Numbered from the stretch's first letter, positions 4,002 to 31,449 are shown. The stretch: DNA of 64,000 nt from an uncultured Candidatus Saccharibacteria bacterium (GCA_964505635.1 CAZDIP010000001.1:222412-286411), one strand, 5' to 3'. The notes: generated by a model from the sequence alone, not told the origin. Numbers and translations are program-made.

Positions 4002-5381
4002 TTATTCTGCCTGGCTCGCTGCCTGCATGACTGCTTGCGGGGAAACATCAAAAGTTTTATCCAAATTTTTAAAGGAAGTTTTATCCTGTTCAAAATATAA
4101 ATCCACCTGACCCGTAGGTCCATTTCTGTGTTTTTTTACGTGAATTTCCGCAATATTAGGACGGCGGCTGTCTTTGCCTTTATACATGTCCTCGCGGTAA
4201 ATAAACATAACAACATCTGCGTCCTGTTCAATAGAGCCAGACTCACGAAGGTCGGAAAGTTGAGGTACTTTATCGGGACGGTTTTCCACCCCGCGCGACA
4301 GCTGGGAAAGCGCCAAAACAGGAACATTTAATTCACGGGCCAAAATTTTCAAACTTCGAGAAATTTCAGAGACTTCCTGGACGCGGTTGTCAGTATTATG
4401 GCCTTCCATAAGCTGCAAATAATCAACTACAATTAGCCCCACATTATGCTCCGACTGCAGACGTCTGGCTTTGGTTCTTACTTCCATTATATTACTGCCG
4501 GCTGAGTCATCTATAAAAATTGGCGCTTCTGACAATTGCCCCATGGCTTCGCCGATTTTTTCAAAATCCTCATCGTTTAAATGGCCGGTACGTATTTTCC
4601 ACAAATTAACGTCGCTCTGTGAGGATAAAAGACGATCAACCAACTGGTCTTTGCTCATTTCCAAAGAAAAAATGCCAACCGGAATTTTTAAATTTACCCC
4701 AATATGGCGCATTATATCCAAAGCCAGGCTGGTTTTGCCCATGGAAGGACGCGCAGCCAAAACTATTAAATCGGATTTTTGCATGCCGCCAAGCAAGTTG
4801 TCCATATCAATATAGCCGGTTGACACGCCCCTCAAACTGCCCTTGTCTCTATGTAGTTCGTCTATCCTTTCAAAAGTGGAATGGAGGATTGTAGAAATTG
4901 AAATGAAATTCTGTTTTAAATGCTTTTGCGAAACACCAAATAATTTTTGTTCCGCTGCATCCAAAATATTTTCCACTTCACCCTCTTCCTTATAAGCCAG
5001 GCTGCTGATTTCCCCGGCGGTTTGTATAAGCCTTCTTAAACTGCCTTTCTTTCTTACAATAAAAGCGTAATGGACGACATTATTAGCCGAGGGCACCATA
5101 TTTACCAACTGGGTCAAATAGCTGCTGCCGCCAATAGTTTCCAAAAGTTTCTTTTCTTCAAGCAGGTTCGTAACGGTTAAAATGTCTATGGGGGTATTTT
5201 TTGAAAAAAGTTCAACTGCCGTTTCGTAAATCAGCTTATGCCTATGGTCATAAAAGTCATCTGCTGAGATTACGTCGGCAATTTTTATAATTGCGTCCCT
5301 ATCTAGCATAACGCAGCCCAAAACCGACATTTCTGCTTCGTTGTTTTGAGGAGGAACTCTCTGAACTGTAGAATTATCCAT
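4002..5381 (-). CDS. dnaB: Replicative DNA helicase DnaB
   Basis: PPQNNEAEMSVLGCVMLD N-terminal signature, Walker A ARPSMGKT, RecA-like C-terminal domain. Confidence 0.95.
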   Translation of the reverse strand: MDNSTVQRVPPQNNEAEMSVLGCVMLDRDAIIKIADVISADDFYDHRHKLIYETAVELFSKNTPIDILTVTNLLEEKKLLETIGGSSYLTQLVNMVPSANNVVHYAFIVRKKGSLRRLIQTAGEISSLAYKEEGEVENILDAAEQKLFGVSQKHLKQNFISISTILHSTFERIDELHRDKGSLRGVSTGYIDMDNLLGGMQKSDLIVLAARPSMGKTSLALDIMRHIGVNLKIPVGIFSLEMSKDQLVDRLLSSQSDVNLWKIRTGHLNDEDFEKIGEAMGQLSEAPIFIDDSAGSNIMEVRTKARRLQSEHNVGLIVVDYLQLMEGHNTDNRVQEVSEISRSLKILARELNVPVLALSQLSRGVENRPDKVPQLSDLRESGSIEQDADVVMFIYREDMYKGKDSRRPNIAEIHVKKHRNGPTGQVDLYFEQDKTSFKNLDKTFDVSPQAVMQAASQAE

Positions 5382-5548
5382 AAAAAATAACTAGAATATT
5401 TATAGTTAATTATAACTAAAGTTAAACATTTTTAAAACAGTAAAAAAGCCCTTGTTTAAGGGCTAAACTGCATAAGTTGTGCAGAAATAGGGGACAAATA
5501 AACTCATAAAATGCTAAAATAAGAAAAATTAACACTTTATTTAATTTA

Positions 5549-5863
5549 ATGTCCTCCGAAATAAAAAACGGCGAACCAGCCGAAAAACCAGAAGCCCCGT
5601 CAATTACTTGGACAAAAACCGTTTTGGATAGGTGTGAAAGGCTAATTAATGACCCGACTGAATATAAACCAAAAACATTTTATGACCCAGTTATGCAGAC
5701 TATTGAAAATGAGTTAATACCGAGGCTAAAAATTGCGCCTTACCAAAATAAAGTTATTGTAAGAAATTTGCTTTTGGAATTTCTAAGTAAATACGAAGCA
5801 AGTTTGCCGGCAAGTGTTATTGACAAATTATCTCAGCTATCTACTGAGACAATAGAAAAGTAA
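5549..5863 (+). CDS. Hypothetical protein
   Basis: 104-aa ORF with no recognisable motif. Confidence 0.35.
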   Translation: MSSEIKNGEPAEKPEAPSITWTKTVLDRCERLINDPTEYKPKTFYDPVMQTIENELIPRLKIAPYQNKVIVRNLLLEFLSKYEASLPASVIDKLSQLSTETIEK

Positions 5864-5873
5864 CAAGTAAATC

Positions 5874-7214
5874 TTACTTTTTACTTGCCTTCTGTCCTTG
5901 CGGGGTATCTTTGACTTCGTACCCCAAAGACTCGATCTTTAACCTTAATTCATCTGATTTTTGGAAGTCTTTAGCATCCCTGGCCGCCTGGCGCTCAGCT
6001 AAAAGTTTTTCAACTTTTTCTGGTAAGGGTTCTTGGACTTTTTCGTTAAAAAAATTGAGGCCAAAAACTTGATCAGGGCTAACGTTTCCATCATGCAGTT
6101 TAAAACTTAATCCAAGAGCCTTAGGTATGTTCAAATTATCATTTAACGCATCAGTAACCTCAGCGTAAACTTTATCTTCCTCATAATTATCTGTCCGTTG
6201 GGTAATCAGACGATCGGTTTTTTTAAAAGTATCTATGAGGAAGTTCATCTGCGTTTGATAGTGTGCGCCACAGAGTGTGGATCTTAATACATTTCCAGCA
6301 ATTGGATTAAATGCTTCCAGATCTTTTAAAGTATAAAAATTTCCCGCACTCTTTGCCATTTTTCTGCCATCTACCAACAAATGTTCGGAATGAAACCAAT
6401 GATGCACAAAATTACCTTTACCTAGCAAGGCTTGGCTTTGTGCTATTTCATTGGTGTGGTGGGGGAATATTAAATCTACGCCGCCTGTGTGAATGTCTGT
6501 CGGTTCGCCATTAAATGCGACTTTGTTTATAACCGAGCATTCAATATGCCAGCCCGGACGGCCTTTGCCCAAAGTTTCGTGATCCCAATATATATTTCCA
6601 TCAGTCTCTGGGTTATATGCTTTCCATAAAGCAAAATCTGACAAATTGTCTTTTTCATACTCGTCTACTGCCACACGAGCGCCAACTTTTTTGCCTTCTA
6701 TAAATTTCTCTCCAACCAGTTGGCCGTAGTCGCCAAAATCTTTTTGGTATTTTTCAATACTAAAATAAGTACTGCCGTCTTCGGCTTTATATGCATAACC
6801 CTTGTTAATTAGCTCAACAATAAACTCCTGGATTTCCGGCATCTTTTCCGTCACGCGAACAAACTCTATTTCATCTACTAACACGTTAACTTCGCGCAGG
6901 TCGCTAATAAAAGCCAAACGGTATTCTTCTGTAAAATCAAACAATTCTTTTACCCCGGCGTTTTCCCCATATTTCTCAATAGTCCCTTTTATAGTTTTGT
7001 CGTCAATATCCGTTAAATTCATAACCCAGCGTGGCTGATAGCTGTCATATTTAAGCGTACGGTAGAGCAAATCTGCCAAAATAAAACTGCGCAAATTACC
7101 AATATGGGCATAATTATATATAGTTGGACCGCAAGTATACATATTAAAATTGCGGTTTTGGGGCTTTTGAATTTCTTCGATTTCCTTTGTTAAAGTGTTG
7201 TAGAGTTTTAGCAT
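5874..7214 (-). CDS. cysS: Cysteine--tRNA ligase
   Basis: CGPTIYNYAHIGN (HIGH region) and KMAKSAGN (KMSKS). Confidence 0.95.
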   Translation of the reverse strand: MLKLYNTLTKEIEEIQKPQNRNFNMYTCGPTIYNYAHIGNLRSFILADLLYRTLKYDSYQPRWVMNLTDIDDKTIKGTIEKYGENAGVKELFDFTEEYRLAFISDLREVNVLVDEIEFVRVTEKMPEIQEFIVELINKGYAYKAEDGSTYFSIEKYQKDFGDYGQLVGEKFIEGKKVGARVAVDEYEKDNLSDFALWKAYNPETDGNIYWDHETLGKGRPGWHIECSVINKVAFNGEPTDIHTGGVDLIFPHHTNEIAQSQALLGKGNFVHHWFHSEHLLVDGRKMAKSAGNFYTLKDLEAFNPIAGNVLRSTLCGAHYQTQMNFLIDTFKKTDRLITQRTDNYEEDKVYAEVTDALNDNLNIPKALGLSFKLHDGNVSPDQVFGLNFFNEKVQEPLPEKVEKLLAERQAARDAKDFQKSDELRLKIESLGYEVKDTPQGQKASKK

Positions 7215-25484: not shown

Positions 25485-26294
25485 TTGAGTTATCAAATGC
25501 TGCCAAATCTTATATTTCTGTTTTCAATTCTGGGAATTATCCTTCTGATTTTAAGGCGCTTGCCTCAAGCCGATAAAATTAACGAGCCAGAAACAGTAAC
25601 GCCCGAAAAACTCCTGTTCGCCAAGGGTTTGCCTGCCGAAGCCATCTCTAAAACCAAGGGTGCCATAAAATTATGGCTGAAAAAAATTTGGAATTTTATT
25701 TTAGAAGCAAAAGACCTAAAGCCTGCTAACCCCGTTGGGTATAGAATCAAGCAAATTTTCCACGCAAGCCGACCGGTCAAGCAACACAAGACAGATATAA
25801 GCCTTACCCAACCACAACAACAGGCACCTAGGCAAGATGAGGCATATTTTTTTGAACTGATAAAAACCCAGCCTAAAAATTTATCCAACTATAACTTGCT
25901 TGGAAAATATTATCTGGAAAATCAAAATTTTGCCGATGGTAAAGACATATACTTATACTTAAGCAACCACGAGCCCACGAATCCTGAATACTTGGGCAGG
26001 TTAGCATACAGCTGTTACAAGCTTGGGCAGTACGAACAAGCAGCGGATTACTATTCTAAATCTTTGGCTCTTGATTCAATCCAGCCAAACCGCTATTATA
26101 ACTTGGGTATTTGCATGCAGCATTTGGACAAAAACCAGGAAGCGATTGAGCCGTTTTATAAAGCCCTAGAACTGGATCCCCAAAACCCAAAATTTATAAA
26201 TACCCTGGCTAAAGCTTATGAAAAAATGAGTGAAAACGACAAAGCAGAAAAACTTTTTTTAAAGCTCAGGCAAATACAAACAAGTGAAGAATAA
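25485..26294 (+). CDS. TPR-repeat protein with N-terminal TM anchor
   Basis: Several 34-residue TPR-like repeats in the C-terminal half (..YYNLGICMQHLDKNQEAIEPFYKALELDP..). Confidence 0.6.
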   Translation: MSYQMLPNLIFLFSILGIILLILRRLPQADKINEPETVTPEKLLFAKGLPAEAISKTKGAIKLWLKKIWNFILEAKDLKPANPVGYRIKQIFHASRPVKQHKTDISLTQPQQQAPRQDEAYFFELIKTQPKNLSNYNLLGKYYLENQNFADGKDIYLYLSNHEPTNPEYLGRLAYSCYKLGQYEQAADYYSKSLALDSIQPNRYYNLGICMQHLDKNQEAIEPFYKALELDPQNPKFINTLAKAYEKMSENDKAEKLFLKLRQIQTSEE

Positions 26295-26296
26295 AT

Positions 26297-26412
26297 AAAC
26301 CCGCCAACTTTTGGTGCCGATGTAGCTCAGCTGGTAGAGCATCTCCATGGTAAGGAGAAGGTCTCCGGTTCAATCCCGGACATCGGCTCCAGAAAATTGG
26401 CGGGTTTTTGTT
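26297..26412 (+). terminator. Terminator-like helix whose loop is a whole tRNA gene
   Basis: AAACCCGCCAA (26297-26307) pairs with TTGGCGGGTTT (26397-26407), followed by a T-run. tRNA-Thr(GGT) lies between the two arms. Confidence 0.5.
26316..26391 (+). tRNA. tRNA-Thr (anticodon GGT), CCA encoded
   Basis: Manual cloverleaf: GCCGATG/CATCGGC acceptor, GCTC/GAGC D stem, TCTCC-ATGGTAA-GGAGA anticodon arm, TCCGG-TTCAATC-CCGGA T arm. Confidence 0.9.
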
Positions 26413-26471
26413 TTTGTTGTATAATTCATTCATACGGCTCGCATGCCAAATAAACTTTAATTTTATAAAAT

Positions 26472-26990
26472 ATGGAGAATAATGATTTATTTCATAAAAA
26501 ATATTTGGGTGAATTCGTATACGGCGCAATGGACGGCACAGTTACGACTTTTGCCGTTGTGGCTGGCTCCATAGGCGCTTCTTTAAGCCCGACTATTGTT
26601 TTAATTTTAGGTTTTGCGAACCTTTTCGCGGACGGCTTTTCCATGGCCGCTTCCAACTACCTTTCTACTCAATCAAAAAACGATCTGCAAAACATTCAGG
26701 AAGAAAGTCCAATAAAAACCGCTCTGGCAACTTTTGTTTCTTTTATAACAGTAGGTTTTATACCTTTGTTTTCATTTGTAGTGTCGGCTACTAACTCAAA
26801 TACTGACAAGTGGACATTTAAACTTTCCATAATTTTAACCGGTGTTGCTTTTTTGCTAATAGGATTTGTGAAAGGTAAAGTCTCCGGCCGAGGGCCGGTT
26901 CGTTCCGCTTTGGAAACGCTTTTAATTGGCATGCTCGCGGCAAGCATAGCCTATGGCGTTGGAGTTTACCTTAGAATGCTTGTTGGGTAG
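26472..26990 (+). CDS. VIT1/CCC1-family (DUF125) iron/manganese transporter-like membrane protein
   Basis: [20 protein letters not shown] signature and C-terminal TM helices. Confidence 0.65.
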
Positions 26991-27006: not shown

Positions 27007-27039
27007 AAAATACCGCAATGCTTGCGGTATTTTAATTTT
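27007..27039. terminator. Rho-independent terminator (bidirectional)
   Basis: AAAATACCGCAA / TTGCGGTATTTT stem with a 3-nt loop and flanking A/T runs. Confidence 0.7.
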
Positions 27040-27123
27040 GGTGGGCGGTGCAGGACTCGAACCTGCGAAGCCGTAAGGCACCTGATTTACAGTCAGGTGT
27101 AATTGCCGCTATACGAACCGCCC
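27039..27123 (-). tRNA. tRNA-Tyr (anticodon GTA), class II long variable arm, CCA encoded
   Basis: Reverse complement folds as GGGCGGT/ACCGCCC acceptor, CCTGA-CTGTAAA-TCAGG anticodon arm, GCC-TTAC-GGC variable arm, GCAGG-TTCGAGT-CCTGC T arm. Confidence 0.9.
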
Positions 27124-27926
27124 ATACTTGTAAATTTTTTAAGTCTCTCTTCGTGTTTTTTGTTCTTAAAACCTATCTCGGTGATATATTTATTTATGTC
27201 CGATTTTCTGGTTAAGTATACACTATGTACACTAATTTTGGAAGGGCTGAAGTTTAGGTTTAAAAATGCCTGTCTAACATCCGCGAGCAGAAGTTTTGAA
27301 AGGTTGGAAAAAGAAATTTGTACCCCTTTATGCATTTTATAGACCGATCCGTCCGTATCGATTAAACCCCTTAAAACAGATTTTAAATATACTTTCCTCT
27401 TAAAAATCCAGGCAGGTATTTTAACCTGTGATTTGGTTTTATTATGAGCCATCCCTTGCCCTAAAAGCCATTTAACCGCTACTGAAGAGCCAAAATACAC
27501 AACTTGGTCGCCCCTTTTAGTGATAATTGTTTTTGGCTTTGAATTAAATACCTTTTTCATTAATTCTGAAACATGCGGGGCATACTTATCTTTTGTGCCT
27601 AACGTAACCGTGACTTGGGTTTTAGTAATATGACCGTCTCCTAAAATTATGCCTATTAATTCAGCTAAATCGCCGGAATATTTTTTTGGCAAAATAATAT
27701 TTTTATTTATATTATTATATCCGGCTTTTTTATCACGTAAAGTTTTTATATTTAGCCTAACTAATCTGTCATAAACGCTATTCTCTGCTAAGTCTAATAT
27801 TTTTGCAATCTCGTTTATGGCTTTATTTTGTTTGACATATAGAAATACAAGCTGTTGCTTGTTTTTTAAACATTCTTGTCTTGTCCATTTTCTGGCCATA
27901 TTTAGATAATATGTAAAAATTGACAT
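27093..27926 (-). CDS. Free-standing double-motif LAGLIDADG homing endonuclease with N-terminal HTH
   Basis: Two LAGLIDADG motifs (LIGIILGDGH and LRGLIDTDGS). N-terminal HTH-like INEIAKILDLAENSVYDRL. The last 31 nt overlap the 5' part of tRNA-Tyr. Confidence 0.85.
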   Translation of the reverse strand: MSIFTYYLNMARKWTRQECLKNKQQLVFLYVKQNKAINEIAKILDLAENSVYDRLVRLNIKTLRDKKAGYNNINKNIILPKKYSGDLAELIGIILGDGHITKTQVTVTLGTKDKYAPHVSELMKKVFNSKPKTIITKRGDQVVYFGSSVAVKWLLGQGMAHNKTKSQVKIPAWIFKRKVYLKSVLRGLIDTDGSVYKMHKGVQISFSNLSKLLLADVRQAFLNLNFSPSKISVHSVYLTRKSDINKYITEIGFKNKKHEERLKKFTSMGGSYSGNYT

Positions 27927-30566: not shown

Positions 30567-30756
30567 GCCAGCTTAGCTCATCTGGTAGAGCAACGGTTTT
30601 ACCTGCCCGCCAGTCGCCGAGTGCCGATGTAGCTCAGTTGGTAGAGCAACGGTTTTGTAAACCGTAGGTCGTCGGTTCAAACCCGACCATCGGCTCCAGG
30701 CGATCGGCAGGCGGGTAAACCGTAGGTGGCCGGTTCGAGTCCGGCAGCTGGCTCCA
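30567..30756 (+). tRNA. Interrupted Thr-type tRNA (outer gene): halves 30567-30600 and about 30715-30756, separated by an insert of about 114 nt
   Basis: GCCAGCT/AGCTGGC acceptor, GCTC/GAGC D stem, ACGGT/ACCGT anticodon stem, GCCGG-TTCGAGT-CCGGC T arm, discriminator T, CCA. All stems are perfect. The anticodon loop is split after TTT. Confidence 0.6.
30623..30698 (+). tRNA. tRNA-Thr (anticodon TGT), CCA encoded, nested inside the outer Thr-type tRNA
   Basis: GCCGATG/CATCGGC acceptor, ACGGT-TTTGTAA-ACCGT anticodon arm, GTCGG-TTCAAAC-CCGAC T arm. Confidence 0.9.
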
Positions 30757-30889
30757 CTGCTTCGTCCGCCTAAGGCGGACTACGCAGTGCAAGCACATCG
30801 TTTTAAAGGATCAAGCGATGTAAATAAGACTGCCTGACGCCCAGGCAATCTGTACTAATCACTATTCACTAACAACTAATCGCTAGAAT

Positions 30890-31133: not shown

Positions 31134-31418
31134 GGGGGCGTCGTATAATGGTAGTATCCGCCGACGCTAAAGCTGTAGCGGACAAGCAGCGGTCTCCGCC
31201 CCGCCTTTACAAACTTAAATATTATCTCCACGGCATCTGGTGGGGGGTTCGTATAACGGTAGTACAATGGTCTCCAAAACCATTTGCGAGGGTTCGACTC
31301 CTTCACCCCCTGCCAAACGCCGCGGAGCTATATTTCGGCCAATAAACCAAAACCGATTGCGTGCTTGCCCGACGAAGTCTTAACGAAGTCGGGGGTTCAA
31401 TTCCTACCGCCCCTGCCA
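31134..31418 (+). other. Split Trp-like tRNA halves (acceptor + D arm 31134-31157; T arm + acceptor + CCA 31391-31418) bracketing tRNA-Trp; possible pseudogene or intron-containing tRNA
   Basis: GGGGGCG pairs with CGCCCCT (G1.U72, discriminator G, as in the inner Trp). D arm is GTAT-AATGGTA-GTAT. T arm GGGGG-TTCAATT-CCTAC has one G/A mismatch. I could not reconstruct an anticodon arm. Confidence 0.45.
31242..31315 (+). tRNA. tRNA-Trp (anticodon CCA), CCA end encoded
   Basis: GGGGGGT/ACCCCCT acceptor (G1.U72), ATGGT-CTCCAAA-ACCAT anticodon arm, GAGGG-TTCGACT-CCTTC T arm, discriminator G. Confidence 0.9.
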
Positions 31419-31421
31419 AAA

Positions 31422-31449
31422 AAGTCCCGCTTAGCTGCGGGTCTTTTTT
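31422..31449 (+). terminator. Rho-independent terminator closing the tRNA/rpmG unit
   Basis: GTCCCGC / GCGGGTC stem (one T/T mismatch) followed by T6. Confidence 0.65.

Follow-up and report, generated by a model that had tools for sequence, protein, structure and literature searches.

A tRNA-Thr gene enclosed by a terminator-like leader-trailer helix in an uncultured Saccharibacteria bacterium

In an uncultured Candidatus Saccharibacteria bacterium, a small-genome member of the Patescibacteria, a complete gene for tRNA-Thr(GGU) lies between two complementary segments of DNA, and a run of T's follows the second of them. This arrangement raises the question of what the predicted helix does: whether it may end transcription with a tRNA in the place of the usual small loop, serve the maturation of the tRNA, belong to a mobile tRNA cassette, act as a repeat in the DNA or be due to chance. 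Here, we examine the locus in the window, i.e. the whole stretch of 64,000 nucleotides that was analysed, and at the orthologous position in related genomes.

The locus and its predicted fold

The features on which the analysis is based are the following:

25485-26294, plus strand: TPR-repeat gene, last protein gene of the rpsB-tsf-TPR row (ORF list; Pfam TPR families)
26297-26307, plus strand: 5' arm of the leader-trailer helix, AAACCCGCCAA; the A-run in it pairs with the start of the T-run
26309-26314, plus strand: leader segment UUUUGG, whose partner is CCAGAA in the MFE and centroid structures
26316-26391, plus strand: tRNA-Thr(GGU), 76 nt, CCA encoded (ARAGORN; Rfam RF00005, 67.3 bits)
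26397-26407, plus strand: 3' arm of the leader-trailer helix, TTGGCGGGTTT
26397-26425, plus strand: promoter-like site TTGGCG-17 nt-TATAAT (consensus scan, 10/12 matches; a consensus match only)
26405-26416, plus strand: T-run TTTTTGTTTTTG (U-tract in the RNA), its first three T's within the 3' arm
26472-26990, plus strand: VIT1 family gene (iron/manganese transporter family), which starts the next transcription unit (ORF list, Pfam)

The genes stand in the row rpsB (24083), a short tsf (24829), the TPR gene, tRNA-Thr(GGU) and the VIT1-family gene (26472). The TPR gene ends with the stop codon TAA at 26292-26294, and in the protein-database call for it (P0001, 100% identical, 244 aa) the start lies, by arithmetic, near 25560. 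The promoter-like site, with its TATAAT at 26420-26425, overlaps both the 3' arm and the T-run. Since a consensus scan gave no terminator-like site on the plus strand between 24000 and 26300, and the promoter-like site lies downstream, the helix is found where the terminator of the rpsB-tsf-TPR-tRNA unit would be expected.

The 5' arm AAACCCGCCAA begins two bases past the TPR stop codon and is the perfect 11-bp complement of TTGGCGGGTTT, with the tRNA-Thr(GGU) gene enclosed between them; the core of the arms is CCCGCC/GGCGGG, then UUUUUGUUUUUG, and the arm duplex amounts to -17.7 kcal/mol. The coordinates that the preliminary description had given for the arms, the tRNA and the T-run all proved correct on re-examination, and so did the lengths of its two spacers, CTTTTGGT (8 nt) on the 5' side and GAAAA (5 nt) on the 3' side of the tRNA. 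These spacers, however, are not simply unpaired. In the MFE fold the leader segment UUUUGG pairs with CCAGAA (26389-26394), composed of the tRNA's own CCA end and three bases of the trailer, in a helix with one U-G wobble that connects the arm duplex to the acceptor stem. Arm duplex (11 bp), connecting helix (6 bp) and acceptor stem (7 bp) thus make up one nearly continuous hairpin of ~24 bp, interrupted by a U-U mismatch and a C/AA internal loop and bearing the remainder of the tRNA at its tip, so that the 89 nt between the arms are bridged by the folded tRNA and the 6-bp extension. The MFE fold of 26290-26420 reaches -57.2 kcal/mol (z = -6.3), and none of 200 shuffled sequences folded equally well. 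Searches of Rfam with curated thresholds gave only tRNA matches in the window; with E-values up to 1, they gave for 26200-26500 nothing but the tRNA and one weak, sub-threshold match on the opposite strand, and in ten related loci only the tRNA was found.

The orthologous position in related genomes

Relatives were reached via EF-Ts and the TPR protein and were ranked by the identity of their EF-Ts to that of the window. In all of the related contigs that extend far enough (12/12) a tRNA-Thr(GGU) follows tsf-TPR, whether the helix is present or absent, and its occurrence at one position throughout indicates a resident gene rather than an insert.

In L162, the closest relative (EF-Ts identity 83%), the tRNA-Thr(GGU) is the same except for one base, and the arms read AACACCGCCAA(A)TATTT... 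and ...AAATATTGGCGGTGTT, followed by TTTTAATTT and TGATATAAT. Compared with the window, the core helix AACACCGCCAA/TTGGCGGTGTT keeps 11 of its 11 pairs, two of them with both partners exchanged (C-G for A-U in one, A-U for C-G in the other), compensatory changes that come from two sequences only and have no statistical power alone. The entire leader and trailer of L162 form a helix of ~45 bp with two U-G wobbles (z = -7.9); it stacks on the acceptor stem, and a T-run comes after it. The 5' arm of L163 (82%) is AACACCGCCAA, as in L162, and the contig stops inside the tRNA. In L166 (78%) the order is AAAAATCTTTTTTCC, ccgg, tRNA, GGAAAAAAGATTTTT and TG, with 15 perfect base pairs in an A+U-rich stem (z = -6.1), while in L169 (75%) it is AAAACCCCTTTTGTAT, tttgg, tRNA, g, ATACAAAAGGGGTTTT and TGTTTG, with 16 perfect base pairs (z = -8.5). 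The three helix sequences, namely the core common to the window and L162, that of L166 and that of L169, are mutually unrelated, and what they have in common is the pairing, an initial A-run and a final T-run; all four of the full orthologous helices start with the one and end with the other. A matching layout is present in an unrelated case, the rpmG-tRNA-Trp locus of a member of the Berkelbacteria (L027), where AAAAAGTCATCC...tRNA...GGATGATTTTTTGATATAAT is followed by a T-run and TGATATAAT. Both in L162 and in L027, TGATATAAT stands at the relative position of the promoter-like site of the window.

In 7 of the 12 orthologous loci (L164, L085, L083, L167, L086, L168 and L082) there is no leader-trailer helix, and an ordinary short hairpin with a T-run is found 1 to ~45 nt past the tRNA or tRNA pair. 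This terminator hairpin lies 1 nt past the CCA in L164 (77%), 4 nt past it in L085 (69%) and ~30-45 nt downstream in L168 (79%) and L082 (72%); in L086 (67%) the hairpin and T-run come after an added tRNA-Tyr, and in L083 (77%) and L167 (72%) after a tRNA-Thr(GGU) that bears a group-I-like intron after T36. Two of these loci keep what appear to be leftover arms: the leader of L168 resembles the 5' arm of L166, whereas its DNA past the tRNA differs, and L164 retains the TTTTAACACC start of the arm of L162 and L163, with no 3' arm. These remnants suggest that the helix arms are gained and lost in place.

The leader and trailer flanks of other Patescibacteria tRNAs were used as an empirical background. 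A perfect leader/trailer complement of at least 11 nt occurs in 4 of 176 Patescibacteria tRNAs, the others having at most 9 nt with a mode of 4-5. When G-U pairs and one mismatch were allowed, helices of at least 15 pairs were found in 9 of 194 tRNAs, against 2.4 expected from pairing each leader with the trailers of other tRNAs, and helices of at least 18 pairs in 5 against 0.25. The limit of at least 15 pairs was the only threshold separating real flanks from controls. Two looser measures were discarded as too permissive: at least 10 pairs (G-U and one mismatch allowed) in 60-nt flanks, a figure reached by about half of the tRNAs and of the controls, and counts of pairs between flanks in constrained MFE folds, for which the controls were equal. 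The excess at 15 pairs or more indicates that flanking helices are genuine yet rare, at about 5% of the sampled Patescibacteria tRNAs. Nor is the pairing of a TGGT leader with the CCA end general, GG being found at -3/-2 in 15 of 198 tRNAs. The alignment of tRNA flanks that had been proposed as a check has two outcomes, i.e. a helix with compensatory change in L162, from two sequences, and a feature that is confined to a small minority of tRNAs rather than general.

Possible roles in transcription termination and tRNA processing

On the strength of sequence comparison and predicted folds, the helix is probably the stem of an intrinsic (Rho-independent) terminator ending the rpsB-tsf-TPR-tRNA-Thr(GGU) unit. 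Directly past the stop codon of the last ORF come an A-run, a stable G+C-rich stem and a U-tract with which the A-run is able to pair, as in ordinary intrinsic terminators, and like these the structure stands at the end of an operon, before the next promoter-like site. The energy of the arm duplex (-17.7 kcal/mol) falls within the range of the two ordinary terminators of the window (-14.1 and -21.9 kcal/mol). Furthermore, ordinary terminator hairpins take the place of the helix in the seven orthologous loci described above, and for a helix that ends in a U-tract and is exchanged for such hairpins at a single site among close relatives, the simplest reading is that of a terminator hairpin built around the tRNA. 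The tRNA had been described at the outset as enclosed by a terminator-like helix; the perfect pairing of the arms is confirmed, and a terminator is the best reading after the comparison of relatives.

The structure departs from the usual form of intrinsic terminators in its architecture. Their hairpin is compact, with a loop of usually 3-8 nt, whereas here the arms are 89 nt apart, a whole tRNA gene is enclosed, the stem continues into the acceptor stem and the 'loop' is a gene product that needs to be excised. Standard searches (loop 3-8 nt) miss a helix of this kind, and our own consensus scan gave no call on it. A further point against the terminator reading is the A+U-rich stem of L166, which is weak for a terminator.

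The following order of events may be proposed. The 5' arm lies in the leader of the tRNA and the 3' arm in its trailer, the tRNA itself taking the place of the loop of the proposed terminator. The tRNA would fold during its synthesis; once the 3' strand of the acceptor stem had paired, the helix could zip outward through the acceptor stem, CCA-GAA/UUUUGG and UUGGCGGGUUU/AAACCCGCCAA, and with the acceptor stem as a nucleus a slow long-range search would be unnecessary. The G+C-rich base of the ~24-bp hairpin would then shut while the U-tract is in the polymerase, which is the condition for release. Afterward, RNase P and a 3' nuclease would excise the tRNA, and the arms may remain annealed and cap the 3' end of the mRNA, possibly protecting it. 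The pairing of a leader with the CCA end should hinder RNase P, so that an extra processing step is implied, which also speaks against the terminator reading.

Should this reading be confirmed, intrinsic terminators would need no compact hairpin, a folded tRNA being able to bridge the arms, and a terminator and the last gene of its operon could be one structure. Terminator-finding programs would miss such sites and the operon maps of bacteria with small genomes would be wrong there. For the maturation of tRNAs, the question would arise how RNase P cuts a leader engaged in pairing with both the trailer and the CCA end. Moreover, the exchange of local hairpins and leader-trailer helices for one another at a single spot in close relatives would offer a simple model of terminator remodelling.

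Alternatively, the helix could be mainly a processing or insulating stem, clamping the ends of the tRNA and offering a double-stranded site to RNase III or another nuclease, with the T-run as a secondary feature. Helices of this type are familiar from rRNA precursors, whose leader-trailer pairing has been reported across bacterial and archaeal phyla and which in E. coli are cut by RNase III, with ~17 bp or more needed (PMC11404451). Long-range pairing between leader and trailer of a stable RNA is indeed what the folds of the window, L162, L166 and L169 contain, and the composite helix reaches a considerable length, with ~24 bp in the window and ~45 bp in L162. Compensatory change, as around rRNAs, may maintain the pairing at this locus, where two pairs are affected in a comparison of two sequences, and it is present in helices that flank nested tRNAs and have no clear U-tract (tRNA-Trp in the window and L011, tRNA-Thr(UGU) in L031 and L032), which indicates that such helices can persist for a reason other than termination. 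On the other hand, the tRNA helix is optional even among close relatives, being absent from the seven loci with a plain hairpin terminator and replaced by unrelated sequences in L166 and L169, and it is present in only ~5% of the sampled tRNAs. It can be as short as 11 + 6 bp, and in the window it is interrupted by the mismatch and internal loop mentioned above, making it a poor substrate for RNase III, whose signature motif is absent from the 64-kb window, a result that applies to this part of the genome only. In addition, rRNA leader-trailer helices are not terminators, whereas the helix around this tRNA is always followed by a U-tract; every non-nested case begins with an A-run and ends with a T-run, needless for a pure processing stem. 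The analogy with rRNA processing stems that was drawn in the preliminary description has support only in part. A role mainly in processing, the main rival of the terminator reading, appears unlikely by this analysis, and it would not be exclusive of termination, the two readings being mutually compatible.

Other known systems share single aspects of the proposed terminator. The pre-tRNAs made by eukaryotic RNA polymerase III end in oligo-U and have a leader paired with the trailer, and a leader-trailer interaction is also said to exist in MALAT1-mascRNA; these eukaryotic cases differ in the polymerase and in that a hairpin is unnecessary, the polymerase needing none. In E. coli tRNA operons, hairpin terminators reportedly hinder RNase P until they are removed, as Mohanty and Kushner (Nucleic Acids Res 2008) are said to have described. 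There too a terminator structure lies beside a tRNA and is removed before or during maturation, but it is local and downstream, whereas here one arm is itself the leader for RNase P and the leader pairs with the CCA end. In a literature search of incomplete coverage, we found no description of acceptor-stem or leader-trailer terminators, nor of nested tRNAs in Patescibacteria; the only related paper found deals with group I introns in the tRNAs of Patescibacteria (PMC13011429).

Nested tRNA genes and other tRNA-associated features

Located 4 kb downstream of the locus are two tRNA genes, each interrupted by another, complete gene for a tRNA of like type; these nested genes are a more surprising feature of the window than the leader-trailer helix. 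In the first, an outer tRNA-Thr (30567-30756; GCCAGCT...AGCTGGCTCCA) has its anticodon loop split by a helix arm, a tRNA-Thr(UGU) gene (30623-30698) and the second arm. Removal of the ~115-nt insert by hand leaves a perfect cloverleaf, the ortholog of an intact tRNA-Thr(UGU) gene adjoining rpmG in L086 (10260-10335), from which it differs by compensatory changes in the acceptor and T stems. In the second, an outer tRNA-Trp-like gene (~31137-31419; GGGGGCG...CGCCCCTGCCA) is split by an insert with a tRNA-Trp (31242-31315), and an ordinary terminator follows at 31426-31441; the orthologous nested arrangement is present in L011 (~4900-5130). ARAGORN, with introns allowed, did not find the outer tRNAs. 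A group I intron was rejected for the nested Thr insert, which is too short and in which Rfam finds nothing, and Rfam recognises none of the short inserts of the nested loci as such an intron. An archaeal bulge-helix-bulge at the nested inserts was likewise rejected, since by eye their helices have, apart from single mismatches, just one bulge, of 1 nt, and lack bulges of 3 nt.

The preliminary description saw the same helix-tRNA-helix module at both nested loci, rightly so, as the flanking helices are present and covary. That of the inner tRNA-Trp is CTCCACGGC/GCCGCGGAG in the window and ATCCGCCGCT/AGCGGCGGAT in L011, and the tRNA-Thr(UGU) genes of L031 and L032 have flanking helices of 18-19 bp that differ by paired changes. 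The flanking helices of the window Thr(UGU) and Trp genes and those of L031/L032 have no clear U-tract.

Nested or partly duplicated tRNA genes were observed in many related loci. In L031 (around 4247-4322, minus strand), L032, L075, L079 and L013 the position of the inner tRNA-Thr within the outer tRNA varies by lineage (D-loop region, anticodon loop, after the anticodon stem, variable region), and the outer genes have further hairpin inserts or have lost one half. L013, from the Saccharibacteria, has two nested Thr genes.

It may be imagined that the helix-tRNA-helix arrangement is a general way to embed a tRNA gene in the hairpin of another RNA, possibly spread by insertion. The hosts would be an mRNA terminator hairpin at the present locus and the anticodon arm of a resident tRNA at 30567-30756 and ~31137-31419. 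Excision by RNase P and a 3' nuclease would treat the tRNA much as an intron with the content of a gene, and the arms would stay paired, with the host hairpin still working, for example as a two-piece mRNA 3' cap or a two-piece outer tRNA. If true, bacteria would possess a gene-within-RNA arrangement of a new kind; we consider it quite unlikely.

Another reading is that of a duplicated or mobile tRNA cassette landing in hairpin loops, i.e. in the loop of a TPR terminator here, where the empty hairpin after TPR would read AAACCCGCC-loop-GGCGGGTTT, and in the anticodon loop of the resident tRNA-Thr at 30600-30715. The shared words from which a duplicated, helix-flanked tRNA-Thr cassette had been suggested are real: CCCGCCA occurs at 26300 and 30606 and GGCGGGT at 26399 and 30710, at similar offsets from both Thr genes. 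As the two words are complementary within each helix, however, they are one coincidence and not two; the probability of any shared 7-mer at similar offsets can be roughly estimated at about 0.01-0.05, CCCGCCA is not over-represented in the window (9 sites, 7.1 expected), and in L162 it is not conserved, CACCGCCA standing in its place. The common acceptor stem GCCGATG/CATCGGC, likewise real, is a phylum-wide feature of tRNA-Thr genes. A degenerate tRNA-Thr pattern with TTCAANCCC as an obligatory T-loop motif had matches at 81 species-level loci, nearly all from Patescibacteria, and this acceptor stem is present in them with each of the three Thr anticodons; throughout the phylum, tRNA-Thr genes of the GGU, UGU and CGU types have the acceptor stem and the D arm in common. 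The same scan returned no close ortholog of the GGU gene, and L162, with TTCGATC in the T loop, was missed on account of the required motif.

A mobile cassette would be consistent with CCCGCCAAC preceding Thr(UGU) in L011, with the short hairpin TTTCCGCCgaaGGCGGAAA between TPR and the tRNA in L083, with the integrase genes adjoining the tRNA in L167 (Pfam) and apparently in L083 (ORF sequence by eye) and with the outer tRNA of 30567-30756, the split ortholog of an intact gene. Nevertheless, at the present locus there is no presence/absence variation, tRNA-Thr(GGU) holding the same position in all 12 relatives. The TTTTAACACC... 5' arm region, which is found in L164 without a 3' arm, favours evolution in place, and in their anticodon and T stems the two Thr genes of the window differ at nearly every pair. 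Beyond the tRNA, the two copies share only a single 7-mer with its complement. Positional orthology of the GGU gene in all relatives gives no support to a recent duplication of a helix-flanked cassette; a cassette is improbable, and so is a remote shared ancestry of the sequences flanking both Thr genes.

That the arms act as an inverted repeat at the DNA level, for instance in recombination, inversion or cruciform formation, rather than as RNA structure is highly improbable. The 11-bp inverted repeat is perfect, and compensatory change is expected of a DNA repeat as much as of an RNA helix, but the U-G wobbles, one in the window and two in L162, can pair only as RNA with the sense of the tRNA and so point to an RNA rather than a DNA structure. 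In every case the helix keeps register with the acceptor stem and the T-run comes next, and no recombinase gene is present among the neighbouring ORFs of the window (ORF list, Pfam). Finally, chance complementarity of the arms beside a T-run of A+T-rich intergenic DNA, which the low G+C content of the window (39%) and the frequent short complementarities between 60-nt flanks might have suggested, is already refuted by the comparative data, namely the rarity of perfect complements of 11 nt or more, the z-score of the fold, the helix kept with compensatory change in L162 and the perfect 15- and 16-bp helices recurring at the orthologous locus in L166 and L169.

Several further observations concern tRNA genes of the window and of the related loci. 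Partial 5' copies of tRNA-Thr(GGU), of 12-38 nt, lie upstream of the intact gene in L009 (~6200-6310, with three tandem 37-nt units), L063, L039, L085 (6558-6576), L083 (~5428-5465) and L167 (~2261-2298). A phage-type integrase gene is located just past the tRNA in L167 (2757-3653, Pfam), and by eye an integrase-like ORF is found past it in L083; together, the partial copies and adjoining integrases would suggest that the tRNA-Thr(GGU) gene is an integration site.

In L083 (~5616-5902) and L167 (2448-2719), the tRNA-Thr(GGU) gene is split after T36 by what is, by eye, a group-I-like intron of ~200-250 nt with the motif ...GCGTAAGATACAGTCTACTCC.... ARAGORN by default misses these intron-bearing genes and mistypes them when introns are allowed (as His in L167). 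For Patescibacteria, Table 1 of PMC13011429 lists introns called by tools at 36/37 of Thr(GGU). The tRNA-Tyr gene of the window (27039-27123, minus strand) has no flanking helix, and an ordinary terminator hairpin lies downstream of it; the end of a free-standing LAGLIDADG-type ORF (Pfam LAGLIDADG_3; 27093-27926, minus strand) reaches 31 nt into its 5' part.

A recurring motif, CTTCG-hairpin-C(T)ACG(C/A)AGTGCAAGC, often within a long palindrome and giving no Rfam match, follows or separates tRNA genes; it is present in the window at 30757-30800 and beside tRNAs in L031, L011, L002, L039 and L047, i.e. in distant lineages of Patescibacteria.

Lastly, a T-run immediately after the CCA, with no extra helix, was found in 27 of 201 sampled Patescibacteria tRNAs, mostly Thr(CGU) genes of Saccharibacteria. 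These resemble the locus studied here in that an acceptor stem, or its leader-trailer extension, comes right before a U-run that would end the transcript. Among L001-L081, again mostly Thr(CGU) of Saccharibacteria, there are many minimal units in which TATAAT lies ~7 nt before the tRNA and the T-run directly past the CCA, and in these the acceptor stem itself may act as the terminator stem.
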